From: Vermamoeba vermiformis
Taxonomy: Eukaryota
Direction: 5' to 3'
DNA: 64,000 nucleotides
Assembly: GCA_045837725.1 (NCBI GenBank)
Contig: JBEWZL010000184.1
Location: forward strand, 372,001-436,000
The notes under the pieces were generated by a model. The model was given only the letters and a program-made list of their open reading frames with translations, searched no databases and had not been told where the DNA came from. A program made the position numbers and the translations under genes. Positions within the stretch are counted from its first letter, which is position 1. The number at the start of each line of letters is the position of its first letter. Below, in pieces: positions 19,887 through 61,000 of this stretch.

Positions 19887-22800
19887 TTACCACGCGAAAG
19901 CTCTGCTGAATTTGCTCTGCGGGTACTTTCTCGTGATAGCTTTACGGATTTCAGCCCAAGGCCAAATAATCACGACCATGCCCAAGTTAACCAACCAATA
20001 GTAACCGTCCACATTGGCAGAACCGAACGGGAAGTGCAAGAACGGCACGTAGACGACGATGACCAACAAACAAACTTCGATGATGACACCCATGTTCATG
20101 GTCCAGTTGCGCATGTTGTGCTTGAACAAGGAAATGACACGTGTCTTGCACATCCAGACGTGCCAGAACTGACACATGACCAGTGTGATCCAATAGCCCG
20201 ATTGGACTTCAGCGAGAATGTTGGCTTGGTCTTCAGCTGTGAATGTCAAGTCTCCAACGGTGAAGTTTTGAGCACCAGAGTTGATCCAATGGGTATCAGA
20301 GCTGAAGGGCAGAGAGGAAGCGGGAATACCGTACTTCATGAAGATCAAGAAGTAGGTCAAGAACGACAAGCCAGTAATGACAAGACCAGCTTGGAGGTAT
20401 GAGTAGAGCAACAACTGCAAGTTGACCAAGTGATCGCGCTTGACATCACGAGGCTTACGCTTCATGATATCACCTTCGGGAGTCTCGTAGGCGAATGAAA
20501 TAGCAGGAGCCAATTCAGTACCGCAATCGATGAGAAGAATCAAAATGGAGTTCATGGCGATGGGAATGCCAAAGGCCAAAGTACAGAGCACAGGCACGAT
20601 TTCAGGGGCCAAGTGAGCCAAAGTGTAAGCAATGGTCTTCTTCAAGTTGTCGTAAATGACACGACCTTCGCGGATACCGACGATGATTGAAGGGAAGTTG
20701 TCGTCCAGCAAGACGACTTCAGCGGCTTCACGAGCGACGTCAGAGCCAGAGATACCCATAGCAACACCAAGATCAGCTTGCTTAAGAGCAGGTGAGTCGT
20801 TGACACCGTCACCAGTGACAGCGACGACATTGCCACGGCGTTGGTTGTTCTTGACGATTTCGAGCTTTTGTTGAGGAGAAGTACGAGCAAAGACAATCTC
20901 GGGCTTGCTCAAGATGTGGTCCCAATCGTCTTCAGTCAAGTTATCAATCTCAGAACCAGGGACGACAACTGCACCAAACTCGTCGTGAGTGACTTCTTTG
21001 GGATCAACACCACGCATCTTGGCAACTTCTTCACGGGTACGCTCGACACCAATGATGCCGACTTTACGAGCGATAGCTTCAGCAGTGAAGGGGTGATCAC
21101 CAGTGACCATGATAACCTTGATGCCGGCTTCGTGGCAAGTTTGAATGGCCTCGGGGACACCTTCACGAGGAGGATCTTCGAGGGAGATCAAGCCAACAAA
21201 AGTGTAGCCTTCAGTAGGGAAGTTGGGGTGGAGTTCGTCGTACTTGACGTGAGGCTCAGGCAAGAACTTCTTTTGAGCGAAACCGAGCACACGCTCACCA
21301 GCACCACCAAAGGTCTTATAGGCACGATCGTATTGCTCTCTGAAGGCATCGTCGATAACAATCTTGCGACCGTTGATGAGAGCCTTCTTGCACTTGAGGA
21401 GAATACGCTCAGGAGCACCCTTGATGACCAACAAGTGCTTCTTCTTGGCGTTGCGGGTGTCGTGAATGGAGAGTTGCCACTTGTTAGTGGAGTTGAAGGG
21501 AATCTCGAAGACTTTAGGGAAGCGAGCGCGAATGGTGTCGACATCGGCAAAAGTGCTGGTGTAGCGGAACAAAGCAGTTTCAGAGGCATCACCGACGATA
21601 ATTTTGCCAGCAGTCTCAATGCGGGCCTCGTTCTCGAAGTTGATCAATTCCAAACTCTGCTTGCCACGGTCGCCACCCTCCATGCTAGGGCGGCCTTCAA
21701 CTCTGCCTCCTTCAAGGCTAGGACGACCTTCAGCGCGGCCACCCTCCATGCTCGGTCTGTAAGTAGGACCAGCACGGTTGTTTCCACGTTGAAGACGGAC
21801 TTCGAACTTGTTGTCTTCAGTCAATTCAATGCTAGGGCGAGGACCAGTCCGGTTGCGTTCAAAAGAAGGACGAACGTCAGTGAAACCTTCACGCTCCAAG
21901 CTGCGGCGACGATCTTCCAGACCTTCTTCGTGCTCAGGATCAGCGGGCTTGTCGAAGTAAGCTCTGTTGCAGAGGGCTGCAATACGGAACAAAGTCAAGT
22001 AGGTCTTGGAGTGAATGAACTGGTTGCCAAGGTCCATAGTGCTCTTCGCAGGCAAGAAGCTTTGATCGAACCACATGTTCATGACAGTCATTTGATTCAT
22101 TGTCAAAGTACCAGTCTTGTCTGAGCAAATCACGTTGGCGGCACCAAGAGTCTCGACGGTGTTCATACGCTTGACGAGCACGTTCTTCTTTGCCAAACGG
22201 TTGCTAGCAATAGACAAGCAAGACGTGACAGTTGCGGGCAAACCCTAGGAGAGGAAAAATTAATTAAAATGAATTGTTAGTTGAAGAGTCGAGTTTACGT
22301 ACTTGAGGAATGTTGGCAATGAGCACGACGATGAAACCGTTAATGAAGGCGAACAAAGGAGGCACACCAGTGGCAATACCAATGACGAAGAAGACGATAG
22401 CCATGATAATTGCCATACAAGAGATGATGAAGACGAAACGCTTGACTTCAACGACGAGTGTAGGCTCACCGGGGTTACCCAACAAACCGCACAACTTGCC
22501 CTTCTTGTGGACATTGGTCTTCTTGGAGGCAAGACCGGCAATTTTACCGATCAAAGTTCCATCTCCAGTCTAAAGAACGACAAAATTAATCACGTGCATT
22601 CATAGAAATCAGCACCATTGCTCTACTTACACGAACGACAATGCCGTAAGCTTCTCCGTTGATCATCAAAGAGCCGCTGAAAGCCAAGTTCTTAGTCTCG
22701 ACGATACGTTCGCTAGTGCACTCCACGATCATGGGCTCAGGCTCGGCTTCACCAGTCATGGAAGAGCGCTCGACTTTGGCATTGGAGGCCCAAATGACAC

Positions 22801-24050
22801 GAAGGTCAGCAGGTACTTTGTCACCAATGGCAATGTGCACAATGTCTCCCCTGACAAGATTGGCTGCGTTGAGGGTTTGTTCTCGTCCGTCTCGAATGAC
22901 TTTACAGTTGGTAGGCAACAAGGATCTATATTTAAAGGTTAATTAAGTGCTTAAAAGTGGTGATTCAGTTTGTGATCTGGCGCGCGAGTGATCCATTCCA
23001 ATTTCAATTATCAAAAATTTAGAAATTACCTGAAAACCTTCATCACACGGTCGGCTTTACGTCCTTGCATAAACTCTACGAATACTGTAATAATGACGAT
23101 ACCAAACAAAATGCAACCAAGCACCAAGTTGATAGTGACTGTTTGATCCAAAGCCCAGGCAATAATTGACAAAGCACCAGCGACCATCAATAAAATCATG
23201 AAGACATTGGTAAAGCCTTCCAAAAATTTTACGATAGCGGGCACCTGCTTGGGAGGAGTCAAAGCGTTTGGTCCATCTCGAGCCAAACGTTCAGCAGCCT
23301 CGACTGTAGTCAAGCCAGGGCCGTCAGCTGGCTTCTCGAGGTTGACTTCAACGTGGTGAAGCTCTGCAACCTCTTTCGGGCTCATTTTGTGCTCTGTAAT
23401 GTCGCTACCCTTGCCTCCCTCTTCGCCCGCTACTGCCACTTTGACATCTGCTCCTTCTTTTTTGTCAGCCTTCTCATCTTTGTCCGTCTTTGCGCTGCCA
23501 TTAATTGGTTCTTTGACGGGCGTAGGAGCTTCAGCAACTGGTTGCTTTTGTTCGGCTGATCGGGCTTTGTCGTTATTCGTGGATTCTTCTGAAGAGCTGG
23601 AGCTTGAGCTAGAAGAGCTGGAGCTAGATGACGATGAACTAGCTTGTTTCTCAACTTTAATTCCGACCTTAGGCTGCTTTTCAGGTGACGAAGAAGATTT
23701 TCGAGATGAAGATTTGGAACTCGAAACGGGAGGCTCATCTGCCCACAAAAATTAAATTAAATTTAAGATCGCTCAAATACGTTCACTAAGGACTTACCTG
23801 CTACGTTCTGCTTGCCTTGCGATGAGGAAGCAGTTGATCGTTTGTCGGATGAAGAGCTGGATGATGCTTCCAAGTGTTGCTGAGGCGCAGGAACTTGTAC
23901 ATCTTGCTTCTCTTGCGATTTGCTAGTGGACTTAGACTTTTGCGACTTGCTAGAAGAAGCAGAGGGCGAGGACACAGCTGAAACAGATTTGCTGCTCTTG
24001 CTGGAAGAGCTTTCCGACGACGAAGACGAATCAGATGACGACGAACTCAT
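19887..24050 (-). CDS. P-type ATPase IIC (Na+/K+-ATPase alpha-like), 5 exons, Ser-rich N-terminus
   Basis: GPNALTPPK, CSDKTGTLT, GDASETAL, EIPFNSTNKWQLSIH, KGAPERIL, GERVLGF, FARTSPQQK, TGDGVNDSPALK, DNLKKTIAYTL. Confidence 0.95.
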
Positions 24051-24379: not shown

Positions 24380-27300
24380 TTATTTAGCTGCCGAAGGAGT
24401 GCTTTCAAACTTTTGAAGCAGCGCTTGAACTCCGGATTCGGTTCGCCCTTGTGTCACGCTAACTGATTCTCTTGTCTGTAATATGCGCATTTGTGGTCTT
24501 TGGGGATTGGAGACCGATTTAGCGGCAAATCGTTGCGGGATGTTGTTTGGATTGGGTCGGACCATCTTTCTCTTCAGCGCTTCGAGTTTTCGAGCAACTT
24601 CTTGGAATGTCGGGCGCTTAGTAGGATCATTATCCCAACACGCTTGTAGCAGCTCGACGTACTCCACAGAAACGTTGTTAGGATCGTTTTCTAAAAATGG
24701 AACGATTAATGATCCGGCCGGGAATTAAATTTTAGTCTTTCAAACGTACCTTGGAGCTTCGGAATTGCAGGTCTCTTTCCTGAGACTACTGCTGCCTCAA
24801 TATCGCTCATGAAATTCATCTAGAATGCAATTGGTGTGAGTGGAAGATCCGAATCGGAATACCAGCATCCACTAATTACCTCGCCGAAATAGTCTTCTCT
24901 GCTCATCATTTCCCATAATATGACACCGAAACTATAGATATCTATTGTTTACCGTGATTAGCAAATTTAACCAAGCTATTTCAGACCGGATTCACATACC
25001 AACTGCTTCATTGTAGTCTTTACGCAACATAATCTCGGGAGCGAGCCAAACAGGGTTCTGGCCAACAAGTTTTTTGCTGTCTAGCTCGCCAGTGAATGTC
25101 AGGGAGCGAGACAAGCCGAAATCTGCTACCTTGCCCTTCACAACTCTGCCATCAATTACAAAGCCTTCCTCATTAGGGTCAGGGAACTATGGATGCATTA
25201 TTAGTTATAGGCTTAAAGGGTCGCTGCCCTAATAATCGTAATTACGGACACAGAATTTCGTTCGAAACACGCAAAAACGAAAGATCACGTCCCAAAAACG
25301 TACCTCGGGGCAAGTTAGCAAAATGTTAGGACTCTTTAAGTCTCGGTGCACGATTGGCGGTACTGTTTGATGTAAGAACTGCATAGCTCTTGCAATATCG
25401 CTCGCGATGTAGATGCGGAATTTCCAGTCGACCACACGCTTGGGATCGTGCAAGTAGTCATATAAACTGCCCTGTAAGATAAAGAACGGCGATTTAGCAC
25501 TTTTAATAGCAAGAAGAGTTCACTTTGACTTACGTGGTTCATAAACTCGAGCACGAGACAGAACGGCTCCATGCAGATGCCTTTCAACACGACCAAGTTC
25601 TCGTTTTGCAAAGAGCTGAATCAAGTTAGTACCCAAAAATATAATTAAATAGAGCTATGCTTACCTCATGAGCCAAGCTTCTCTTCTAAACTCCGAAAAC
25701 ACATTCGCGCCAGAAGATCCGTCCATCGCATCCATTTTAATCTTTTTAATGGCCACTTTTTCTCCTCTCCATACTCCTTCATACACAGTCGCGTAAGCGC
25801 CTTCACCGAGAGTTCGTCCAAGCTCAAGCTCCTTATATACAATTCGTTCTTTGTTGAAGGCACTCATCGTAATGTCGGGCACGAGTGACGCGATGGGAAT
25901 TTGTTTCTCGCCTGAGGGACAAGTAGCGACCTGTGATTGATTCTGTACAAGCTCTTCCAACTCGGCTACATCAAAAGTGCGTTATTAGCATCAAGCATAA
26001 TACAATAATATCGATGTAACTTACAAAATTCAAATAAGTGAGCGGACTTCTCGTCGCCATGTTGCAAGCAATGTGAGCAAGGCACTTTGACCTTGACTTT
26101 CACCATGAGCCAGTCATTGACAAGCGTGTTGATGGCCTCGTCGAGTTCGATCAATTTGACGACTTGTTGAGGTCCTCTGATGAACAGTTTGAGGCGTGAA
26201 GAGTCCGAGTCTACAGTCAAGAAGACACGCACTCCAGGGGACTTGAAAACAATGCCTGATCGCCAGTAGCATTGGGGCTAGCGGTGTTACGTTAGATAAT
26301 GCAATCACAAGGTTAAAGGTCCTTACCTCAAACTGTGACGAGTTCAACAATCGCACCATCAACTTGCTGAACAGACCAACTGGCAAGAATTCGAATTGGT
26401 AATATCTATTTGCACGAGTTAGATATGAATAGTACTGCTGCATTTTCAGGCTAACGCTTACCTTGCAAGTTGAGTTTCAATGCCAACATCATTCCAGTAC
26501 GTGCTGAAGTCGTCTGGTTGCTTGTCGGGAAGCATCCAAGGAATGAGTAATGTACCAGCGGAGCTACAGGTAAAAGTTATGAGTAAGAGATGGCTTACAG
26601 ATATGATGCAGATGAACTTACTCTAATTTGTAGCTAATTTCGAATTTTTCCAAAATCTTCAATAACATCGGGTGCAAGGACTCAGGATACTTAGGAGGTT
26701 TCCACACGTGCACGAAAGCACTAGGTTTCATCTTTCCGTCTTTGGCGTATTGATTTTTCATAGAGACAATCGTCGAGAACACTTGCGTTAGCCACTGACT
26801 GTCGAGAATAACCATTTGATCGAGTCCTGATTTTTGGTCGTTGAAATAGACCTGTAATAAAATATATTAGACTGTTTATAGCGATAAAAAAAAGACTTAC
26901 TATAACACCCATTGAATATAAGAACTGCGTGGCTTGATTGATGTCGTCTTCAGTGGTCAGCTTGCACGCTTCGAGGATCTTCAAGTATGCTTCTCTATTG
27001 ATAATAGGCGGCATTGGGTTGGTGTTTTTCAAAGCGATAATCTTTTCTTCGAGCGTTCCGAAATTAGCGGGAATAGCTTCTTCGGTCATGTGAGGCTGTT
27101 GCATAGTAATTTCGATCAACTTCTTGCGTAGCTTTGAAATGTTAGTGCCGGTAGTGGTGCTGACGTCAATATGATAGACTAAATTCTGGAATCGTTTCTT
27201 GTAGCGGATGCGCTTCAAGATGCTATTGAAGGTATTCTCAACCTCTCTGTATAAGAGTCGTTAATACTAGTACTATAATAGTGTATATTTACGTACTCTT

Positions 27301-29402
27301 TGGTGCATTCGTCGGTTCTGGTACCAACGAGGACGATTGGTGAGTCTCCAGTACGCGCCTTCAAACCTTGAAGCCAGTACTCGATTAAACAGTTCTCTTC
27401 TTCTGGTCTCTTCAAGTTAAACACGATGACGTAAAGAGAACGACGAGATAAGAAGAATTGATGCGTAGCATAATAAACTTCCTGAAAACAATGAACTTGT
27501 TAGTTGGATCGAGAAAAAAGTTTTAGGCAGGATAAAGCATAATGCGAGTATATATTATTAGCTTATAATAATGAAAATTTCTTTTACCTGGCCTGCAAAG
27601 TCCCAAGCTGAAAAATGTAATCGCTCGTTGTTTGGAATAATTTCTTTGTCTTTAACAGACCACTCTGAGATATCGATACCATCTTAATAATATATATTAG
27701 TTATAGAAATATAGTAAAAGTTAACAAGTAGTAATACCAGTTGCTTGAGGCTTGCCGCTCATCATTTCGGGAGTAGATCCGGAGTTAGCCATAGAGGACG
27801 AAGAAGAAGATTGATTGCTCACAACACTATAGGACATTATTAATGTATGTCATAATATGCGGTTCATTAATCGTTTTAACGTACCCAATAGCGCCTTCCA
27901 AGAACGATCTGGCCGCGTTCTTTTTCTTTTGTTTCAAGGCGCGTAACAGCGATGTTTTACCGACGTCTCCATTGCCAACGAACATCAGCTTCATTCTGTA
28001 TCGTTTCTTAGCTTCACCAGAAAGTTGCAAGTTGCGGAAGTAAGGTAGCGGATCTGACTGAACTTCTTTAGGTAATCTGACCAAGAAGGGATTATCGGAG
28101 ACATCCAACTTCGTCAACTTGACGAGGGAGCCGAGCTTGACAGGGGACTCGGCAATCTTGTTACTTGATACATATAGCTCCTCGAGACCAAGGCACAAAG
28201 AGAGGGATCCAGGCAAAGATTTGATTTCGTTATTTCGGACGCTAAGAACTCTAAGCTTCGCTAGAGTACCTATAGTGCAAATAAGGACCATATTAGCGCA
28301 AAATATAATGTTAATTGTAGCGTTTTAAAGCTTAAAATTAAAAATTAAGAATCAATCGTGGTTATAAAACTCACCAATCTCGTCAGGAAGGGCTTGCAAA
28401 TTGTTATTATCCGCTATTAATGCGCACAGGTTCTCTAATTTCTTGATTTCTGCGGGAAGCGTCGTCAGCTTATTGTTTGAAACATCTATTTTTGTCAGAT
28501 GAGGGAAAAGCAGATGTGGCTTTAGTTCTGAAATTTCGCGATTTTGCAATAGCAACTCGGTAAGCTTTCCTGTTTTGCACTATAATAGATATCGAGTTAA
28601 TACACGTGCAATGTGCTTAAAAAGAAATAAGATTTCATTTTGGTCGTTGCATAAAAATTGCAAATAAATGATCTTTTGCGCTCGAAAAAATGAGTCTTTA
28701 AGTAATTACATCGTCATAGTAATTATTAAGCTAAGAAAAATATCTTTGATAGCCCTGTCAAACTATTATTGGCGCAGATTTTATCTCGCTATTTAATTTT
28801 ATATGAAAAGCTATATAGAGCGTAATTGGAGTATTACTCACGTAATTAAATATTACAGAAGCATAATTTGATTAAAAAAATAAATAAATCAATTTTAGAT
28901 AATTTCAGCTTACCTCCAAGACACGAGAATTTGCTGCCACTAAGTCCATAATAATTTCGAAATTTTCTGCAAGAGATTCATCGGTGAATGCGTCCCATTG
29001 AAGCTCATCCTCTTCCGCATTCTGTTTCAAGTATACGAAGAACGGAGCCTTTTGGTTTTTACCAAAGTTCTCGTATATTTTGAAATCTGTAATGCTGTAA
29101 TTATTTCTTAATGCATCAACTAATTGCTTGATATCCGCGTGGGCGAGCAGATTGCATCGGAGATCCAACGATTTCAAATTCACTGAGCCATCTTCCATTA
29201 ACTCTTTAAGTATGTCCACGCCATCTGAATTGAGATAATTATTTCTAATATTGATTTCTTTGATGCTCTGCTTTGCTTTAGTTGCAACTACTTCCAAAAT
29301 CTCTTTGACCGTTGATCCGCATAAGAAGTTGCCTTCGAGATTAAGAGAGGAATATGAACCATCGATTGCCCCTTTGAGGCTAGCAATGGCTTGGTCGTCC
29401 AT
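24380..29402 (-). CDS. Roco protein kinase (LRR-ROC-COR-TKL kinase), Pats1/QkgA-like
   Basis: Two LRR blocks; KLMFVGNGDVGKTSLL, WDFAGQEVYYATHQFF, LVGTRTD; COR ILDSQWL and FLPVGLFSKLMVR; kinase GEGAYATV, HRDLKSPNIL, DFGLSR. Confidence 0.95.
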
Positions 29403-29723
29403 TGCGTCGATCCGTTGAGTTCAATTGAAAGTTGACAAAAAAAATAAAATTTCCAACGCAGGTTAAACACTTAAGGAAGATTGAGTATAATATGATTTAT
29501 CAGAATATTATGTTATTAAATTATGATAGGTGCTGGTCTGAATCGTTGTTTGGTTGATTTGGACGATAAACTCCAACAATAACCCCCCACTTCGGATCTG
29601 TACAGCCCAAAGGCTGCTTTTGCATGAACATGTATATTTGAATTAAATGTGGCGGTTCGATGGTGGTCAATGATTTTGCTTCATTGTTGTTTTACCAGGA
29701 CATTAGTTTTTTTGCTTAAATAG

Positions 29724-42287: not shown

Positions 42288-45200
42288 TCACTGTGGATTT
42301 GCTGTCTCGCTCTTTTCCTTCTCTTTGTCTTTTTTCTTCTTATCTTTCGACGTGAGCTTAGCAATAGCATTACTTAGTGCATTATGTCGGTCCCAGAACT
42401 TTTTCTTCTTATCTTTACTCTTCTCTTTCGGTTCTTTTGGCTCTTTGACCTTCTTCTCTTTCTTTTTGGCCTCATCCGCTTTTTTGTCCTTCTTATCTTT
42501 CTTTGTCTTATCATCGGATGTGCTAGACGCGAGTGCATTAGCATTGGTCGTGCTCTTGCTTAGGTTATCGTTCGATTTGGGGTCTGCACTAGCCCGCGGC
42601 GAATCCGGATCTGACTTCCGTGGCGGAGCACCGGGTTTCGGCAATGGCTTGGGCCTAATGCGGTTATTGGCATCATCGGTGCTTCTAGTAACAAAGCGCG
42701 GCCTATTGCGTATATAACGTTAATCATTAAGTCCGCTATCAGATCCCAGACCAAAAAGCAGATTTCGGTCCCGAATGTAAATTCTTTGCAAAGAAGCAAC
42801 TCGCAAATAGCACTATATTGTGAGATCTATATAACAGGACTTACGATGGGTTAGCAACAACAGTGCCTGATTGCAGTTGTTTTCTCCTGTTCGCGAAGTA
42901 ATCGCCGGATCGGAGTTGCGCAGTCATGTTAGAAATATCATAGCCTTCAGGATGCTCTTCAGTAGCTCCTCCTTGCCCCTAAAGTTATGAAAAACCGATT
43001 GTGAGCATGACAGCGTTTAAAAGGTGATTTGACAAAACAAATCTGGAAAGTCCAGATCGAGATTTCACTGTAACCGCTCGCCAAGATTTGTTCCTTCGAG
43101 CGAACATTGCAACATGTAATTACCTTATTCTTCTTCATCTCTTCTAGCGCTTTAGCTCGCTTCTCCTCGTTCTTTTGTCGCAATCTTTCTCGCTCTTTTT
43201 CAACGCGTTCGCGCTCGAGATCTTTAACGGCATTCTATGGAATAAGCTTAGCGTTAGTACCCGGTCGCAATCATACCACCATATTGAATATATAAGCTTG
43301 GCAGACGGTGAAGGTCAAGGGAATTCACAATCTAGCCTGAAATTTCTTCGCGTAATGGCAGCAAAATTGCAACAAAGAAAATTTGAATTAAATAGTGAAT
43401 TAAGTAAGGTGATTCCTAATCTATAGCTATTTTTTGCAAAGGTAGTTAAGTAATTCTTTAAAAGGGTGTCACTTTCGTAAATCCAAGAGTTTGATCCGGT
43501 AAATAAATATTTGGAGTCTTACCTTGCAAGCCTCACTAAAATTGTAAATTGTACCGAACATATCTTCGGTCGAACAGCTCTTAGGGTCCTCAGCGAAGAA
43601 TGTAACGAGCTCTTTGAACTGCTTCTCCATTGTACCGAAGTCCTTGCTTATCAGATCCAGAGTATCCTTAGCAGTCGATGAAAAGCGCTATGTAAGGTAG
43701 CATTAGCATGGATAATTGATTGGAGCTCCACCAATAAATATTAATTAAAACTCCGTTACAAATTGACGTGCGCTATTAGCGGATGCCGCCATTTTTAAAA
43801 CTTAATCGCTATTATTAGTATAAATATCTGAATTACCTTTAAGATCTGAGCGAAAGGATCGGTGGCACTAATTACTTCTAGAGTTCCAGTTACGATTTCA
43901 AAGCCTTGTTTCAGCTTTGCCACGCCTGCCGTAGTCTCGGCGAGGGACACTTAGATGCAAAAATATTAGCATAAGTATGTATAATAATAACGCTATATGC
44001 AACGTCTTTAGATTAAATAATTATTAACTAATGGGTTTTCATTGAATTTAAATTTTTGTTGTCGAGGATTAATTAAATTTTAAATCTTACCTCGAGATGC
44101 GTGCTTCATTTGAGGAAGGTCGTCGTACCAATCCATAACATCAGGATGATCCTTTTGCAAGTACATGATGATGTAGTGGATCAGCGTTTTCTTGTTGTCA
44201 ACCGATTTGGTGTCTTTTAGCTTATTTAAGGTATCCATAGTAAAGCCAAAAGCACCTCCTCTAAAACCACCTCCGTTCAGGTAATTTCCAATCGCTAAGA
44301 TGATCTCCAATATCTTCTTGAATTTGTTGCTGGATCTGACCTGCTTTGAAGCGAACAAGACTGCTTGAATATCAGGCTGTAGATACTGCACTTGTTCATC
44401 GAAAGTAAGCTTATATTGAATGCTTCGTAGTCTTTCTTCGTAGTTCGGTACTTTGAGCATTTCCAGTAAAAATCGCTCGGCAGTTCCAAGTTCTTCAGCT
44501 GGGCCCTTATATTCGTTCAATAATGTAATTTCTTCTTTTGTCGGGATGTACTCCAATAAAGCAGTAGCGTTCTCGGCATTAATGACGTTCTCGTCGAATT
44601 TCATGATGGACTCGCGGATCTTCGGGTACGTAACGTCTTTGAAGCGAGATAACGTAATGGCCAAGTTATTGGCTCGCTTGGCATCAATGAGGGTCTGCTT
44701 AGTCTTCTTAGCTAAAATGGGAGTTTCTTTCTTTTCAATTTCTTTCGCGGCAAACATTTCTTCGAGCAAGTCGAGATCCAGCCGGATCAACTCATCGTTC
44801 AACTTCTCCCAATACGTATCTGGAATCTTATTGTTGCCGATCTTAGTCCAGTTCATCTGCTTCATCTTAATGCGAGGCTTAGGGTTCTTCTTTTGTTTAA
44901 CTGTAGCAATAAAATTAGTACCAAACATGCTGGTGGACACGTGTCACAAAGTACCATTAGAAGCCAAGCCAGGGCCAGGTGGCGGTGGAGGACCGCCCAT
45001 ACCAGGTGGAGGTGGTGGGCCTGGGGGAGGAGGAGGTGGTGGGCCACCGTCGCCGCCCATGCCAGGAGGAGGTGGTGGAGGTGGAGGAGCGAGTTCACCA
45101 CCGGGTGGGCCAGGAGGAGGTGGCGGTGGAGGAGCTCCTACGGTCGCATCGGGAACTTGCGGTGTTGCCTTCTCATCGGCTGCAAAAAGGCGTTAAGTAC

Positions 45201-48200
45201 TTGGTCAACAAAAAGTCAACGAGTTAAGTTTTCCTAAAGTACGTACTAGGAATACCAAGCTTCTTCTTCAACTCTTCGTTTTCAGATTGGAGCTCATTGT
45301 TCTGCTTGCTCATAGTCGTGATCAAGTTGCGCAAGTTTTGGATCTCCTCCAAGACACTTTCGGGGCTGCTTGGCGACCGGGATCCAGCCGCTGGTTTGGA
45401 ACCAGTAAGTGCAGGAGACTTGCTGAACCATCCTCGCTTCTTTTCGCTCGGCAAGATGACGTTCAACGAGTACATTTGCTCTTCGTTGAATTCATCGCCT
45501 TGTCGCTCTTTGATCATCGTGACTTGACGCGACAAATTGTCGAAAATGTTCCACACATCACGACCTACTTTGACATCGGCAGTCATGTCGAGCATGAACG
45601 ACAGAACATTCAAAAAGCCGCTGTAGAACGGTGTGTTCTTCACTGATTTGTACAAGGCTTCGTAAATATCGTTCGGGTTTCTAATTCAAGGTGATTAATA
45701 AGCTTGCCTAGTATAGTCATAATAGCTTATACTTACGCTCGATTGACGTTTCTGACTTCAGCGACTTGGTTGTCAGTCTCCAGCCAGTCAGCGTACATTT
45801 CTTCTTCAAACACATCCAACTGCGTCTCCAAACTTTCATTGTTGAACGTAGATCGGAAAGACTATTTAATATATTAGAAATATATTATTTGCAATAGTAA
45901 GTTTTCGTGTGCTTACCGTAATCAGATCTACAATGCCCAACTGAATGAAGAAATGTCGCATTTTAAGTCTTGTCTCGAGGTCTTCAGGCATATTAACGAT
46001 ACTGTTAATCAGTGCCATGCAAGAGATTAAATATTCGACTGAATATTGTTGCGCTAAGCTTTTCATTAATGACTCGAAGCGGATCTCCTCATTTTTCTTC
46101 TTTTGTAAGCGCTTATACGCATCATGAACAACCCTAAATAGTATATTAGTAATATTCTCAGTAATATTACGCTATTCTTCGAATAACTTACGCATGACCA
46201 TTCGGAGGTAACAAACAGGCCGCAGCTAACAAATCCAAGATCATGATTTTAACTTGCATGTTCTTAGTCATCAATTCTATTTTAACAATTTCGTACATTG
46301 CGCCATCATAATCTAAGATAGCTTGCAAGCCGATCTGTAAAAGGCAGCATTGAATTAGCAAGAAGAATAACTTTTCCTATTCTGTTATTTACGTACCTTA
46401 GAATTCATAATAGCGACTAAACATCGTACTATTTCGACAGCTAATTGAGGCGCATCGGTGGTTTTTCTGAAACGAGATTTTCGTTCCGCTTCGACCAGAT
46501 TTCGGAGCAAAAGTCCTAATCCGTCTTGCTCGAAGAAACTCTTAAGCCAAGTTACTGTACATGATCCCAATAGTACTCTCAAATGCATCATATCATCTAA
46601 TGAAGCCTACAATTGAACAAAAATGTTATTAGTTTGCCGTGAATTTGCCAGTTTGAAAATTGCCGCGGGTTATCATCGAAAATACCCAAAATTGGTAATT
46701 CTATCATGCCGAATCGAAACATGTATATTTGAATAAATTAGGTCAAATTTGATTCCGTCGGCCGTAACCAAAAATGACAAAAAAAATTAAATTCTAAAAA
46801 AATTATTTCAACGTACCTTATACTTAGTCAGCTTGGTGATATAATACTCGACGTTAGAGCTCGAGTTATTTGTTTTAGTCTTATTTCTATCGCCACCGCT
46901 ATTATTCAGAGTACTTTGAGGCTGCGCCGCTTTCATTTGTTGGATCAAGGTCAACTTGTTTTCATCAGATAAGGACATGACGTAGTCTCGTTGTTCTTCG
47001 GGAATGCCCAATTCATCCAGCATCGCTGCGAAGGCCAAGTAGCGCTCTTTCTCATCGGGAGCCATAGTGTTCAGATCTGCTCGCTTTGGCGTTTCCAATT
47101 TGGGACGTGCTGTGTGAGGAATTTTATCGGCAGCTATAATTAAGGTAAGTTTAAAATGTTAGTATCGAGGACTTACCTCCGCCTGGTGCGGGGACTTTTC
47201 TCATAGTTGGAATTTGAGGCACTCCTAAATTTGTTTGTGATCGAGTTCGCTTGCGGAATCTCATCGTATCTAAATATTGATATTAATATGAATGTTACTA
47301 ATATATAGTAGCTGCCGGGTAGTATCGATAAATGATGTATTGAATCGTACCGTGAGGTGGGGCATTGGGATCTCGGCTTGCCAAGTCACGTGTTCCAACG
47401 ACTGTTGATCGCTCGTACACGCTCGGTCGCGATTTTTTCTTCTTTTTGTCACCGTCTTCATCTTTGCCTTTAAAAACACGCTTAAGAATCCTCAAGGTAC
47501 CCTTCTCTTCGCCCTGTGATCGTCTCTTAGTCTTCTTATCTTCTTCTTTTGGCGCCGCGTCTGGTGATAAGCCTTGTTGCGGAGCATTTTTGTTGTCTCC
47601 GCGCGGTGATGATTTAGGTATTGCTTCAGGTGATGTGCTTGGCGTGTCAACCGGTTTGTGTTCAACTTGTTTTTCTTCAGACGGCTTGTTCACGACAATA
47701 CGAGGGGACACTGAATCTGTAATAAACAAAGAGGGTTAGGGTTTGACGATACGATTTTTCATCACAATGACTAACGTACCTTTAGATGCTGCATCCTCAG
47801 TGCTCGTGCTCGTGTTATTGCTGCCGACTCTAGTATGACCTTTGACAGGCTTATCCATGTCCAAGAGATCCTGCGACAAAGGAGCTCCGTCTTCATCGAC
47901 CGTTTCGCGTCGTGACAAGTTACTAGTGCCAGCACTAGTGGTTGTTTCTTGTGACGATTTTTCTTCATCGAGTGAATTCTCTTCAGAAGGCACGATATCG
48001 CCTAATTTAGGAAATTGTGTTGGATCGATAACGGGGTCTTCTGGTTCTCGTGCACTTTCTTCTTGCCACGATGACGCTTCGGACATGGAACTTTCGCCCT
48101 CGCGTTCCTACTTGGTATTAATATGACGTCGCTGATATTTACTACTATCTTATAGCTCGGTACCTTCAATTGATAGAACACATCGTCGCTGTCAATAAAC

Positions 48201-49139
48201 TCGGTCTGTCCTTCCGTGATCGGTGTGAACCCGACAGGACTCGCCATGACTTTTTTCGCAAATTCGATTGCCGCGTGGCGATCTTGATTGACCGAAACTG
48301 TTTTAAGAATCCAATCTACGAGTTGTGCGCCTAAATTCTCCAAATTAGTCCGTTGAAAAGATTTCAATATTTTCGGCAAGTTTGGTTCGAAAAGATCTTT
48401 TTGAATTTGCAAATTGAATTGCACATTTTTGATGCTATGAAATGAGAAGAGATTTTGGTTATAACAAATAGTGTGAATTAATTTACAATTTTTCGATACG
48501 AGTTAAATCACAAAAAATCTTATTACTTGCCGAAATTTGGAGCGGATCCATGGAATAATCTTCCATTTACCCACTATAGTAAATAATTATGCTTACCACT
48601 AAAATTAAGAAGTTCGGCACCATGTGAACCGCTATGTCTGTTTGCGAGGCCAAATTCCTCATCCTCGAGCAGATTTGTGGCGTCCTCGATAACACCAAAT
48701 GGGTCTAATAATATTTGTTAAAATCAATAACGCTATTATTTTCCAAATTAAATCTTTTTAGCGGATTTGACGATATCAAAAAAAGAAAATTACCGTGAGC
48801 CTTCGGACTGTCCAAAAACACAGCAATTTCTTGACGCAGCTCTGCTGTAATGTCTTCTTGAGCCTTAATACAGCTTTCTAATAATTGAGAATCTGCAGAA
48901 TCTTTCTCCAATTCAGCAACAATCTCCGCGTTTGTCAGATTTGTAATTATTTGGTGAGTTGCATGAGGCTCTAAGAACTTCGTTTTGATTTCCTTTAATA
49001 TATGGGATCGTTTTGCTTCATCTTTTTCATGCTTCGCGTGCTCAGTTGCGATCCAGAAAAACAAAAGCTTCGCTTTCTGCTTCACATCCAAGAACTGAAG
49101 GAAATTGAGCGTGGTATTAATATTATTTAGCTGCTCCAT
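42288..49139 (-). CDS. Diaphanous-related formin with N-terminal RGS and DEP domains
   Basis: RGS-like FLQFL...LLFFWIATE...IKTKFL; DEP NFSGAQLVDWI...EFIDSDDVFYQL; GBD/FH3; poly-Pro FH1; FH2 MKQMNWTKI, ILAIGNYLNGG, LNKLKDTKS; DAD-like MTAQLRSGDYF. Confidence 0.9.
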
Positions 49140-49403
49140 GTAATATTAATATTGGTATATAATATATTATAAATTTTAATTTTTGATATCGGAACTATTT
49201 CATTCTTCGGTAGCCGCGCAGATGAGGCTCTTTCCTCCAAATAACAATAATATGGCCTGTTAGCCGCGACCACGTTTATTAAGATACAAATAAGTTGTTA
49301 GTGGTCGCGTCTTTTTGAAGTTTTTGAAACTGACCGTTTTTTGTTTCAACAAATTTGAATGTTGTGGGCAGCAATCGACCACAAAAATATTTATATTTAG
49401 CAA

Positions 49404-51246
49404 ATGCTACGTTTTATTCCAATTATAGTATCAGCACGGTGTTTGGCAAAAGCGCGGCTTTTTCGATCGAGATCGATTTTAATCCGACATCTCCACTCAG
49501 AAGGAAAAAATCCTTTGTTCGTAGAAACATATGACAAACTGAAAGTAATATCTATGCATGAGTTTGGTAATATTGGGCTATTACAAGGATTTTGGTACCC
49601 AGAGACAGATCCAACGAAGACGGTAGGCCACAACAAACCCCAATAAATATATCATAATTTAGTACCGTCATAAATCGTTGAAGAGAACGAAAGACAGTCA
49701 CAATCATCCACTTACACAATTTTTTTGAGTCAGGGAGCCATCAGATTGCGATCTAACAATCTTACTGACACTCTAGCGCAACTGAAGGATCGATTTCTCA
49801 TTATCGATAAAAGTACCTATGAAGATGTAGATGCCTCAACCAAGTAGGCGCTTAAAACAGCGAGATGATGAATCTGCGATCTGAACTCATTGATTTTAGA
49901 CAACTCCGCTTACTCATCAAGAAGGATATTCCCCATAGTCCTCAAGTATGATATTTTAATATTATAGGCGATTGCCTGGGAGCTAAATCAAAGGGAGACC
50001 TAACCTTACTACAATTCAGAAAAAGAACGAGCTTAAAAAAGTTGAGAACGACGTGCTGAATCGGCTGTTAGTTAGATACGATGTGGATGGCAAAAATTTA
50101 TCATTCAAAGCTCTAGGCAATGCTGACTTAACGGGCACGATCGATCCGTTCATTCGAAGCACGGTAGAGTTCGCTAAAACCAATCAAATTGCCATTCAAT
50201 CAGTCGCTATTGGATATTTACACTTTATAGGACTTCAAAATGCACGAAAGATTCAAAAAGAAGGTTAGTAACCATGCGCTACGCGAGAAAAGATCCGCTA
50301 TTAACGCACCTTTGTTCGTAGGAGTCTTTATTAAGGTCCTAAACAGTCGTATATATCCCCTGTATAGTGTCTTTAGACCCCCAACGTACCAAGAGTATTT
50401 GGAATTCTTTTCGCGCATGTTCAACAAACATCAGCTGTACAATACTACCGGCCCCGTTCTCGAAATTGGTAAGCTCATTACGATTATAGACATTATGCAC
50501 CGTACTAAAATAATCATGTTCTACATTAATCGGCCTATTAGGAAGTGGCACGGGAGTTTTATCGTTAATCATGGCGCAACAAGTTATCAACAAACGTAAG
50601 GATTTTATTCCACGCAATGATAAACGTTACTTAGCAAATGAGCTATAGTAGTATTTACTCGCAATTTTTCAGGGCCTGAATTGGCGAGTCAATGGAAAGT
50701 CGTTTGTACTGACATCAATCCACAAGCGGTCATTTGCACGGAGATGAATGCGAATGCAGTTTTAGGAGCAAATAAGCATATGATTGAGCCAATTCATGCC
50801 GATTTATTCCCTCCGAGCAACGATAAGTATGAATTAATTGTCAGTAATCCGCCGTTCAAACCAGTTGAAAATATTCGCACTCCGTTCGAGTTATGTAAGT
50901 GCCTTCGTTACCAAATATAGTTTAGCTACGCTTAAATACTATAATGAACCTAACCGCTATTGTTGTAGCTGTTTATGACAAGAATGAAAGGTTTTTGAAA
51001 ACGCTATTACAAACCGTAGCGGATCGACTGACAGAGAATGGAAAGCTCTTATTGTTGTACTCAAATATCGATAGACCAGCCGATTATATCGACAATCTAT
51101 GCAAGCAATATCAGTTGGCTGTGGAGGCCAAAGAAGAGCTGGATGTACACGCGATGAAAGCTTCTGACCCATTTGCCCCTACTAAGGTGCAAGGAACTAA
51201 GGAACGCTTACAGATATTTATTATTACTCCATCCGCTCCCAAATAA
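49404..51246 (+). CDS. Class I SAM-dependent methyltransferase (MTS/HemK-like), possibly mitochondrial
   Basis: VLEIGSGTG, CTDINPQAV, ADLFP, IVSNPPF, LTENGKLLL; Arg-rich acid-free N-terminus. Confidence 0.85.
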
Positions 51247-56049: not shown

Positions 56050-57651
56050 TTGATCAATTCAGAATGGTCGAATATTGCTGCAGCGAAGCTTAAAAAGCGA
56101 ATTCATGAATTTGAAGAGTACGTGCGTAACGGCTAACGGCTACAAACCAAAACTATTTTCAATTTCAGAACATTAAATGATTATATGTTAATAATTATGA
56201 TATTAATATACTTTTAGTAATCATCCCTGTTATCGACCGACTGAAGAAGAGATCATACAACATCTGCATGACCCGCAGTTAGAGCTGTTCCAGAAAGCTA
56301 CGAACAAATTTTTAAGTTATCAGGTAGCTATTAATATATACAAGGCGGCACTATGTATGTATTTATGGTAATAATTGAATCGCAGGATGATTACAAGTTG
56401 CGGTACCATATTGAAGATCTGATGCTCTCGAAATCTAAAAACAAGAAAATTTTCGATATTAATCCAGACTTATGCAACCTATTCGAGCCAAATTTCCTTC
56501 GCTCGGAGGAGTGTCCGTAAGTTCTTGGAAAGACTATCTTTATACGTGCCACTAACATAGTCCACAAAGGTTCTTGTTCAAGTTGCGCTTCCGTGTCAAA
56601 AACGATCGTTATCAAAAGCAGATGATTTTTTTCGGATTTGTTTTTCATGAAGGACTGCCGTGTCCAATTGGCTTAAAAGATGTGCCTGATGTATTCCCTG
56701 GACACATTTTTGAAGCAGTTGTTGATCTGCACGAATGTCGTGCTTATAACATTCGAATATATAGCGTTCCGGAGACTATAATGGGTACGTCATTATAATA
56801 TATGATTGGTATTATTGCGGCTCATCGTAATATAGGAATTTTTCCGACTGGAGAGAATGCGCGGATCCTCTCGAGTGCTTTGGCGATACCGATGCTCCTC
56901 GGAGATCTTTGGCAGATGTATTATATTCACAAAGCACTACAAACGGTACTGGTTACAATAGTCTCGTATTACTTCATGATCGTTGTTGCGGCCAATCCGC
57001 CACTCAAACTTGGATTCGCTGGCGGTTACATTGTTGGCTTGGTGTGGTACCGCGGCATCGTTATAGAGATATTGAAGCTAGTGGCGTATACTGCAGTAGG
57101 ATATATGGCACAAAGATTAGTTTGGGAGTTGTACCGAGGTACTGCGGTTTCGAAAAGAGGATCGAACGTTATCGCTGGAATTTTTTTCTTCGAATTGATT
57201 ATTATTAATAATTTACGAGGATTATGGCAATCGATAATCACCGGAGATATATTTTTGGCATTTTTGGAAAATAATTTAATTTATGGCTTGGTCTTCTTTC
57301 AGTACTGCTTATGGGCGCTGGTTCAAAAAGAATTTCCTAAACAAGCCTATGATCCGATAATATTAATGCGATTTTATAGTACAGTGATATTGTACACGTT
57401 CTATAATCCAACTCCTTGGTTGTTATTTGATTCGAGCTAATGCCGAAATAAACGAATCAAACAGCCTACATATTAAAACACCAGATGACCTACTCGTATG
57501 GACATCAACGGACCAATTAGGCAATGCTATCATAGACGTAGCCAATAATACCTCATTTTGGATCCACGTTGTAAAAGTCAACCGTGTTGAAAGAGCGATT
57601 GATCGCTGGTCAATTGTAACCAACCCTAAGGTTGCATAATTACTAGTAAAT

Positions 57652-58770
57652 ATGAACTTTAAAAAACCATTGTTTATTTGTGGAATCGTTGGCTCGAGAG
57701 GCACGAAAACCTGTTTTTGGTGTAAAAAATGCGCCGAAGAACCAATTTTATTTCATTTTCCAGCCTTAAGTGCAGCAGATAAGGTACCTTATTCGCCAAC
57801 GATATGTTTCAAGAACAGTTAGAGCCAGATCAGGACGTATTTAAGAGCATCGTAACTTCGAATTCGGGACTATTCCAGCAATTATATGGCGTACAATCAA
57901 TAAGTTAGGAGGAAAATATATAAATTTTGAGCAAGAGCAACGTGCACCTCCAAATCTAAGACCTACTTCAGACTTCAACAATCGAAATCCGGTTGTAAGT
58001 AATTTTTATAAATTATAATTTGCTTCATCCAACAATCTATTATGATTTGTTAATATTTTAAACCGATTTTTAGAATTTAATAAAAATCCAGGTCTTTAAC
58101 GAATTTTATTTTTATCAGGATCCGTCTGCTGGCGCTTTCAGTACGTTAGAAGATTTAATTATATTATTATAAAATATTAATTGGTCTTTTAGAATTATTA
58201 CCGACTGGTGGAAAGTTCTTACCAATGTTATTCGGTTTGTCCGCTGTCGTAGCCGATATTTGGACGCTTTACCCAATCGTTTGGAATTGGATTCTCGTTT
58301 TAATTAGTGGACCTCTTCTCGTGGCTTTAATTCACAAACAATTTCCTAAAATGGCAGCAGTGGCGGCGGTGCAGATCTTGGTCGTACTATTTATCAGTCC
58401 TGCAGCACTATTCGATATTTTAAGGCTTTTGATAGTATTGGTAGTTGGCTATTCTTACCAGTCACTATTGAGTAGAGCGTGGGAAGTACACCCGATTTCC
58501 AAATTAGGAAAAATATTGCTTGGTTCGTTGCTGGCTGCGGATCTGATCTACATGAACGTCAATTTGCGGCTATTTATAACATCGATAATGAGCGGAAGCA
58601 TATTACCAACATTACTGTATTATACAGCGTTATATGGCTTGGGACTCATCAACATGGTCATAAGTTTCTGGATGTACCCGCAGAAAGCGAGTTGGGACAA
58701 AGTAGGAGCGATTGCACTGCTGAGATTAGCATCGTTAATGTTGATATATGTGTTTTACAACCCATTATGA
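57652..58770 (+). CDS. Membrane family copy 2 (multi-TM domain, no recognisable F-box; 5' exons uncertain)
   Basis: LIYMNVNLRLFITSIMSG and YVFYNP closely match copy 3. Confidence 0.65.
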
Positions 58771-59149: not shown

Positions 59150-61000
59150 ATGTGGTGGCGAACGCAGTTGGAGCCAGATCCAGAATTTTGGCAAAACCTA
59201 ATCTACTGTCACACCGTGAAATTCATCGTCGCCGTACTAATCATAGCTGCCTTGCATAAAAAATTGGATGCCAAAAATGATAAAAGGCGAATACAGCGGC
59301 GTCCACGAGAATTAAGTCCGGTCACACCGAAAAACAATCCACATCCGCTTATATTACCAGTAAGTAATTTTTAAAAATTAAATTCTTCCATTAAATTTCC
59401 TTACTGTGCTATTTGAACAGTTTTTAATTTGTTTGACGATAATTTAAAATGTTCGCAAGTCTAATTTTTCTTTCAGGATGTGTTGGTGGAAATTTTATCG
59501 CATGTGGATATTTTAACGCTGTATAAATGCCGACAAGTAAATTCAGAATGGGCTAATATAGGTGCTCGAGATATTAAAAGGAGATTACCGAAGCTCGAAT
59601 CAGACGTTAAGACTTGGGAGTAAGACATCCGATCTTAAAATTGAATTATTTGAAATTAATTTTAAATTTATTGCAGAGATATTCAATATCGACCTAGCAA
59701 TGAAGAGATTTTAGCGAACGTTATTGACGAACACGCTGCGCACGAATTCAGAACTTTTTTTGGCAGAATTGGGCTGTTCAAAGCCTATACGGTAAGCTTC
59801 TGTTTATTTAAATATGAAATTTATCGCTATTTTATATTAATTGGCATATAGGTTGATTATCCGGCAGTCTACCACATCCAAGATCTGATCGTCTCGCAAG
59901 ATCTCGGCAAGAAAATTATTGACCCTAAATCGCCCTCCAAATTGACGACGTTCTTTACGGCTAACCATATAACGTCGCCTCAGTTTCCGTAAGTTACCAG
60001 ACTACTATTTCAATTTAATTGATCGATCAAAACGTACTGGATAAATTCATAAGATTTAATTCGTTAATTTCTTCGAAATAGATTCTTATTGAAGCTAGAA
60101 TTCAAGTATGAGAATTATCAGTTGATTTTCAAAGAGACGCAGCGATTGGGCTTGACGTTCAAATTGACCCCGAAAACTATGCCGAAAAGTCTACCGCAGA
60201 TGAATGGTTGTGAATATGAAGCATTATTTGATATGGCTAGTGGAAAGGCTTATAATATTAGACTATTGAAAGAACCTAAATTGGTACTCGGTAAGCCTAC
60301 AAATGAATTTTTTCCGCACCTTAAAATTCTAACCGATATTTGTGCGCCAAAATCTTCTTAAATACTTAAACGCTACTAACCTTAATCTAATTAAATAATA
60401 ATTTCCAAATTAGGAATAATACCGATCGATGACAACGGAAAAAATTTCTTGCCGTTATTGTTTGGCATGCCAGCGTTCATTGCAGACAATTGGACGTTCT
60501 TCCCGCACGCATTTGACCTATTTTTAGTATTGTTCAGCGGATGTGCGCTTAGTGTCATTCTCCAACGCGAATATTCGAAGATTTCAGCCTTCGTAGTATT
60601 GGAGATCCTGATCTTACTTTTTTTCAACTTTTCAATGCTGTTCGATACATTAAGGCTATTGGTTATAGTATGCTTTGGGTATAATATCATATCGTTCTTA
60701 ATTCGAGCACGAGAAGTCCTGCCAACGACAGAATTAGGCAAAGCATTGGTTGGAACAGCACTAGCGTTGGATCTGATCTACATGAACGTCAATTTGAAGC
60801 TATTTATCACTGCTATTATGAACGGCAATATATTATGGACACTACTATACTACTCGATAGTATTTGGCGTAGGCGCGTTGCATGTTTTGGCTTGTAAACG
60901 ATTGTACCCGCAAGGCAATATTCAACGACAAGTCACAAAAGGCTTCTGGATACGCATAATCATATCAATATTAATATACGTGTTCTATAATCCGGAATGA
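59150..61000 (+). CDS. Membrane F-box family copy 3 (intact): TM - F-box - unknown domain - multi-TM domain
   Basis: FIVAVLIIAAL; ILP|DVLVEILSHVDILTLYKCRQVNSEW (F-box); six exons in frame; hydrophobic last exon ending YVFYNPE. Confidence 0.82.

Follow-up and report, generated by a model that had tools for sequence, protein, structure and literature searches.

The gene analysed here occupies positions 49139 to 42288 on the minus strand of a 64,000-nucleotide (nt) stretch of Vermamoeba vermiformis DNA (GenBank assembly GCA_045837725.1, contig JBEWZL010000184.1, forward-strand positions 372,001 to 436,000), which is referred to as the window and within which all positions are numbered. An earlier inspection of the letters alone (the original prediction) had read the locus as an in-frame fusion of an RGS domain, a DEP domain and a formin, and had proposed that a single polypeptide could couple the state of receptors and G-alpha subunits to actin filament assembly. 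The RGS-DEP-formin fusion is real, backed by transcripts and lineage-restricted, and a head made of RGS and DEP on a formin was not found described in the literature searched. The gene model comprises 19 exons and 18 introns of 43-288 nt, all bordered by GT-AG and all joining in frame, and it runs from an ATG at 49139 to a stop codon at 42288-42290; the joined exons amount to 4827 nt and encode 1608 amino acids (aa), with one stop only, at the terminus. The original prediction had placed the gene ends, the RGS exon (48794-49139), the split in the DEP domain and the FYQLK end at 48164, all of them correctly, and its canonical in-frame introns hold for 18 out of 18. Most intron donors in the gene read GTAAGT or GTACGT, and a yeast-like branch-site motif, TACTAAC, occurs in several introns (e.g. 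43253-43259 and 47159-47165).

The domain content was scored with Pfam exon by exon, on single-exon translations rather than on the spliced protein. Exon 1 (48794-49139, minus strand as all exons below; residues 1-115) encodes a divergent RGS domain beginning at Met1, which matched Pfam RGS at 31.5 bits (cut-off 23.9; E = 2.5e-7) over positions 11-103 of the 117-position profile. Exon 2 (48597-48704; residues 116-151), which alone yielded no Pfam match, supplies a short spacer and the first third of the DEP domain, up to ...LLNFSG, where a 266-nt intron cuts the domain before AQLVDWI... Exon 3 (48164-48330; residues 152-207) provides the remainder of the DEP domain (AQLVDWI...FYQLK), scoring 27.1 bits (cut-off 32.7; E = 4.1e-6) over profile positions 22-72 of 72; the score falls short of the cut-off because exon 2 holds the domain's first third. 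A phmmer search of exon 3 against the PDB returned no DEP chain, merely two chance-level lipocalin matches. Exons 4-6 (48107-47780, 47716-47351 and 47269-47177; residues 208-470) form a low-complexity linker with 16% hydrophobic residues, acidic and Ser-rich in its first half (isoelectric point, pI, 4.3) and basic in its second (pI 10.2). Across exons 1-6, no Pfam family was detected besides RGS and a single DEP, and no exon of the gene matched a RhoGEF or PH family in Pfam.

The remainder of the protein is a formin core. The Diaphanous GTPase-binding domain (Drf_GBD, cut-off 30.1) is encoded by exons 7-9 (47133-46817, 46606-46397 and 46334-46192), with 34.4 bits in exon 7 (profile 4-78) and 39.3 bits in exon 8 (profile 86-148). 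Exons 10-12 (46133-45917, 45861-45737 and 45680-45247) cover the FH3/DID, dimerisation region and coiled coil, with Drf_FH3 at 56.4 bits in exon 10 (cut-off 27; profile 6-78) and weak coiled-coil-type Pfam matches at the end of exon 12. Exon 13 (45179-44955) is the FH1 segment, 49% Pro, in which five runs of 5-8 prolines (residues 968-1019) directly precede the FH2 domain of exons 14-16 (44900-44091, 43949-43837 and 43687-43523); the latter reached 274.1 bits in exon 14 (cut-off 34.8; profile 2-275), and its end was recognised in exon 16 (28.7 bits; profile 319-370). Exons 17-18 (43234-43124 and 42978-42845) encode a charged helix after FH2 and then, in exon 18, a stretch which by eye resembles a DAD, GYDISNMTAQLRSGDYF, followed by RRK. 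Exon 19 (42702-42288) carries a Lys-rich basic tail and the stop codon, the last 138 residues being 25% Lys with a pI of 10.0. FH2 together with FH1 makes the protein a formin, and GBD with FH3/DID makes it a Diaphanous-related formin (DRF); the Pfam matches and proline runs thus lie in the order originally proposed, namely RGS, DEP, linker, GBD/FH3, FH1 and FH2.

Transcript evidence was drawn from two public runs with different study codes (X1 and X2), whose contigs are 95-99% alike to the window. Among the joints listed for these contigs, 14 of the 18 introns (1-6, 9 and 12-18) are removed, the borders coinciding exactly with those predicted and the ends reading CT..AC on the plus strand in every case. 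All six introns that separate the RGS exon from the first GBD exon are among them, with introns 1, 3, 4, 5 and 6 spliced in contigs of both runs. The joints flanking exon 2 are 48704/48794 and 48329/48596, exons 3 and 13 have joints on both sides, the joint 45179/45247 fixes the donor of intron 12, joints were likewise found for exons 17-18, and that of intron 18 occurs in X2. At the 5' end, an X1 contig (record 5, 896 nt) is colinear with the window from 49307 to 48794, and three joints of the same depth (introns 1-3) lead on into exon 4. It also delimits an unspliced 5' untranslated region (49140..49307, minus strand) of at least 168 nt, in which the sole upstream open reading frame (ORF) is trivial, at 2 codons, and an in-frame stop lies 2 codons before the ATG. 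Further downstream, an X2 contig (record 9, 527 nt) covers exon 5 together with 44 nt of exon 4, all of exon 6 and 24 nt of exon 7, its reach being taken from the record coordinates and the joint sides. Because the junctions from the RGS exon to the GBD exon are spliced in these contigs, RGS-DEP and formin are, as the original prediction had assumed, one message and not two neighbouring genes; a minor internal start may exist at the locus. Passages of PMC2386819 caution that odd formin architectures may be gene-prediction artefacts, and the spliced transcripts let this fusion escape that usual worry.

At the 3' end, the contigs of both X1 and X2 skip 130 nt at 42348-42479, with GA..CG ends, which is not an intron; 255-nt loose ends also occur at 42328, and CGC is inserted at 42307 in one contig of X1. 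Close relatives therefore vary in the sequence or length of their C-terminal tail.

Against the X1/X2 contigs, the window shows 40 listed differences (78 more fall outside the list), 36 of them synonymous in the frame of the model, which indicates that the gene is under purifying selection; the count is 13 of 13 in FH2 exon 14 and four of six in linker exon 5. Relatives of the head are few. A word-based homologue search with the RGS exon against longer proteins scored none of 132 candidates, and HMMER, run with exon 1 over the full set of 1.84 billion representatives, retrieved only two clusters, at 77% (P0023) and 41% (P0024) identity, and no full-length orthologue. Both are short ORF fragments (144 and 121 aa, respectively) which begin at the same Met and pass the Pfam RGS cut-off independently, with 35.1 and 24.8 bits. 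A metagenome scan gave 374 pattern matches, one of which was confirmed, and did not find the contig of P0024. The confirmed contig (L001, 2443 nt) holds a relative with 77% identity in the RGS exon, in which introns occupy identical positions from the RGS exon to the linker and exons 1 (346 nt) and 2 (108 nt; 81% identity over 37 aa) have the same lengths, intron phases and GT-AG borders as those of the window. It runs on through the DEP domain into a well-conserved start of the linker, where the contig ends, and it can also be aligned with the window upstream of the gene.

The original prediction depended on an RGS fold for the residues encoded at 48794-49139, and Pfam, a profile search of the PDB and Foldseek all agree on that fold. 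With a three-sequence profile, the top seven PDB matches were all RGS domains (RGS10, RGS18, RGS6 and RGS5; E = 1.8e-4 to 6.9e-3), with weak matches to RGS6 and RGS7 (E = 0.0065 and 0.066-0.069). When the AlphaFold model of exon 1 with a predicted local distance difference test (pLDDT) of 56.9 was submitted to Foldseek, the matches listed were all RGS, GRK or rgRGS structures, with template modelling (TM) scores of 0.57-0.59 at the top; the best was RGS4 (1agr_H; E = 2.5e-3, TM 0.58). In the ESM Atlas, the best score of 0.88 corresponded to an RGS cluster and, being under the 0.9 level, serves as a lead only. Exon 1 is predicted from these comparisons to be an RGS fold, with weak structural support.

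The function of that fold can be judged from the residues expected to touch G-alpha. In the HMMER alignments with RGS10 and RGS18, Leu25, invariant in three of three homologues, is paired with the Asn of 'SEEN', which precedes the conserved FW by three residues; Ile65, a Val in P0024, is opposite the loop Asn of 'EVNLD' / 'QVNVE' in two independent alignments; and position 104, Glu or Asp in three of three homologues, faces the Asp of 'MEQD' in RGS18. We take these RGS10 and RGS18 residues to be the equivalents of Asn88, Asn128 and Asp163 of RGS4. In RGS4, these three residues are described as critical contacts with G-alpha (PMC8252600). Two of the three canonical contacts would therefore be missing, and activity as a GTPase-activating protein (GAP) appears doubtful because the Asn88 and Asn128 equivalents are Leu and Ile. 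On balance, the missing contacts would fit the pattern of RGS-homology domains which bind partners without GAP action, and the domain may make no contact with G-alpha. The earlier interpretation thus stands in part: its architecture and single transcript hold, while the proposed coupling to G-alpha, with the RGS domain acting as a GAP, appears weakened by Leu25 and Ile65.

The distribution of the head among formins was approached from the FH2 exon. A search with this exon against longer proteins recovered 22 formins, with 41% as the highest identity, and the best FH2 relatives (33-41% identity) are all of the GBD/FH3-FH1-FH2 type. In the precomputed Pfam lists, RGS and DEP are absent for all 22, a Pfam rescan of the 10 nearest found an RGS/DEP module in none, and the long N-terminus of one of these relatives (P0002) shows no similarity to the RGS-DEP head. 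No characterised formin with this architecture turned up in full-text literature searches either, in agreement with what had been supposed at the outset, and the term 'RGS' has zero occurrences in the text of the formin-diversity papers PMC5628938, PMC2386819 (text and supplement legends) and PMC555941. DEP is named among the extras of single-species formins in Grunt et al. 2008 (PMC2386819), and that DEP-formin, compared here by its mention only, may overlap with the present gene family.

Several known systems resemble the fusion in part. The order GBD, FH3, coiled coil, FH1, FH2 and basic C-terminus is common to the present protein and to DRFs such as mDia1, the 'amoeba Drfs' of the Dictyostelium ForA/ForE/ForH type and EhFormin1, whereas the RGS and DEP domains on a long linker are an extra module here, and the DAD goes undetected by Pfam. 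In the RGS-RhoGEFs (p115RhoGEF, LARG, PDZ-RhoGEF and EhRGS-RhoGEF), an RGS-type domain is likewise joined to a protein that regulates the actin pathway, and the state of G-alpha can thereby act on Rho and formin signalling (PMC3641396); their output is a DH/PH exchange factor upstream of Rho, whereas here no DH/PH is present, the RGS domain appears to be without two canonical contact residues and the output is the formin itself, one step downstream. DEP and RGS also share one protein in Sst2, Magnaporthe Rgs1, RGS6/7/9/11 and EGL-10, in which DEP is reported to target receptors or membranes (PMC3426613). The order in proteins of the Sst2/R7 type is DEP then RGS, whereas here RGS precedes DEP, there is one DEP domain instead of two, GGL/DHEX is absent and a formin is attached. 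The Dishevelled-DAAM1 pair likewise joins a DEP-bearing protein to a formin downstream of a seven-pass receptor, and DEP has a role in their contact. DAAM1 binds Dishevelled (PMC2947498). The two are separate animal proteins, without RGS, whereas here DEP is present in cis. More generally, FH2 proteins have repeatedly gained N-terminal membrane or signalling modules, the examples given in PMC2386819 and PMC5839782 being PTEN, Sec10 (moss For1F), PH, PDZ and RhoGAP, and the present head adds to the N-terminal targeting modules acquired by protist formins. Known routes from heterotrimeric G proteins to actin use intermediaries, examples being the chain of RGS-RhoGEF, Rho and formin and that of Dishevelled and DAAM1, and RGS and DEP on the formin itself offer a ready-made test of whether this relay can be shortened. 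The reach of the finding is limited, with relatives of the head confined to two small clusters among the representatives scanned and a host which is not a model organism.

The reading we favour, and hold with moderate confidence, is that of a Diaphanous-type, Rho-regulated formin which its N-terminal RGS-homology/DEP module targets or gates at membranes or receptors. The RGS-homology domain (residues 1-115) and the DEP domain (about 135-207) lie ahead of the core, separated from it by a disordered linker of about 260 residues. As in other DRFs, the FH2 dimer would nucleate and elongate actin filaments, with FH1 supplying profilin-actin, and GBD/FH3 would fold back on the C-terminal DAD-like segment until opened by a Rho-family GTPase. 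The RGS-homology/DEP head, on its flexible tether, would then serve to localise or gate the formin and not as a classical GAP. Through DEP, the protein would be drawn to acidic membrane or receptor tails, and a second protein contact would come from the RGS-homology domain, possibly with activated G-alpha bound non-catalytically. Actin filaments would in this way be assembled at sites that receive receptor signalling and Rho/Rac activity together. Dictyostelium offers a precedent for N-terminal targeting add-ons, with C2 in ForA, C1 in ForE and FHA in ForJ (PMC555941).

Several points weigh against this reading. The DEP match, scored in part from exon 3 only, lies below the Pfam cut-off, and the DAD is without statistical support, exon 18 matching no Pfam family at E <= 1; Pfam Drf_DAD is, according to PMC2386819, a profile that detects none of the yeast and Dictyostelium formins. 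The assignment of X1 and X2 as RNA runs is a guess, and the runs recorded as RNA (X19 and X21) gave 22 and 31 reads, a single one of which crosses an intron, intron 9. Introns 7, 8, 10 and 11 are absent from the joints listed and rest on GT-AG borders, frame and homology, with gap-free similarity to other formins spanning junctions 8, 9 and 11, and no single contig covers the whole message. AlphaFold gave poor models of exon 1, at a pLDDT of 50.8 from the sequence alone and the 56.9 quoted above with a three-sequence alignment. An invariant Asn70 lies five residues past Ile65 and could stand in for the loop Asn if the loop were longer than in solved RGS domains, in which case the domain may still act as a GAP. 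Binding of the protein to membranes, receptors, G-alpha and Rho is, finally, predicted from sequence.

The strongest competitor grants the RGS domain a direct part in signalling, as both GAP and effector of activated G-alpha. With DEP docked on a receptor, binding of activated G-alpha would directly release or recruit the formin, with no RhoGEF step. An RGS-family domain does stand at the N-terminus of a formin on one message, the acidic residue at position 104 is kept in three of three sequences, invariant Asn70 lies near the loop, and the RGS-RhoGEFs of mammals and Entamoeba provide a case in which RGS serves as a G-alpha effector input to actin (PMC3641396). The Asn88 equivalent is nonetheless Leu in all three homologues and the Asn128 equivalent is Ile or Val, some 260 disordered residues before the GBD fit tethering better than allosteric opening, and the intact GBD/FH3 suggests that Rho-type control was retained. 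We regard this alternative as unlikely. The corresponding picture of the head as a working G-alpha and receptor sensor, in which activated G-alpha, with DEP docked on a receptor or membrane, recruits the formin and helps to open it directly, is likewise judged unlikely. Were it true, a single protein would link seven-pass receptors directly to actin nucleation and bypass the RhoGEF-Rho relay of animals and Entamoeba.

For the favoured formin with its targeting or gating head, the N-termini of related formins give an indication of origin. In local BLAST alignments, those of P0001, P0003 and P0008 (starting at residues 30, 4 and 3, respectively) correspond to residues 466-481 of the model, and the N-termini of other formins match residues 466-495. 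An in-frame ATG, Met441 (47261-47263, exon 6), lies two codons past the acceptor of intron 5, about where ordinary DRF formins begin. Because the N-termini of related formins align to residues 466-481 and Met441 sits about where such formins begin, the gene probably originated by fusion, an RGS-DEP gene having been joined upstream, at the 5' end, to an ordinary formin gene. The ancestral formin may have started at Met441, which could also give rise to a formin-only isoform. The same position bears on a different account of the locus, according to which two products are mostly made separately, through an internal promoter before Met441 or through early polyadenylation, and the fused message is a minor read-through. 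In its favour, Met441 lies where related formins start and the gene is not spanned by any single contig, but introns 3-6 are spliced in both X1 and X2, the X2 contig of record 9 spans exon 4 to exon 7, exons 1-6 are free of stop codons in the frame of the model, the differences in the linker exon are mostly synonymous, and the X1/X2 table of sites where many molecules begin or end lists none for this locus. Separate products as the main output consequently appear improbable. As for a chance open frame, a pseudogene or an assembly chimera, no support was found, the sole oddity being the divergent 3' end in relatives' contigs, and such an artefact is ruled out in practice by spliced contigs from two runs with different study codes, by the 36 of 40 synonymous differences pointing to purifying selection and by the same exon structure, with upstream synteny, on the independent metagenome contig L001.

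Beyond the formin gene, the window holds several other predicted genes. A small methyltransferase gene (50642-51246, plus strand; matching Pfam MTS at 29.2 bits and containing an NPPF motif) is divergent from it, and the spacer of about 600 nt between them, from 49307 to about 49900, would hold the promoters of both. Further along, the plus strand carries a tandem array of three ORFs, each about 200 aa long (56799-57440, 58159-58770 and 60395-61000), none of which gave a Pfam match; they look by eye like paralogous multi-pass membrane proteins with a common ...YMNVNL.LFIT.IM.G.IL.TLLYY... pattern. A Roco-type gene lies at 26721-29420 on the minus strand; different exons of it encode leucine-rich repeats, the beginning of a Roc GTPase domain and a segment matching COR-A. 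A gene for a P-type ATPase of the Na/K type occupies 19887-23751, also on the minus strand. Several of its named relatives cover just 72-77% of the large-exon query, which may reflect a repeat-like stretch (...RPSMEGG...RPSLEGG...) in the translation. Among these named relatives, those of dictyostelids and Physarum are the best, at 50-53% identity, with animal and oomycete proteins mostly at 46-49%, a difference that gives just a slight lean towards Amoebozoa, and the best matches overall reach 99% and 89% identity.

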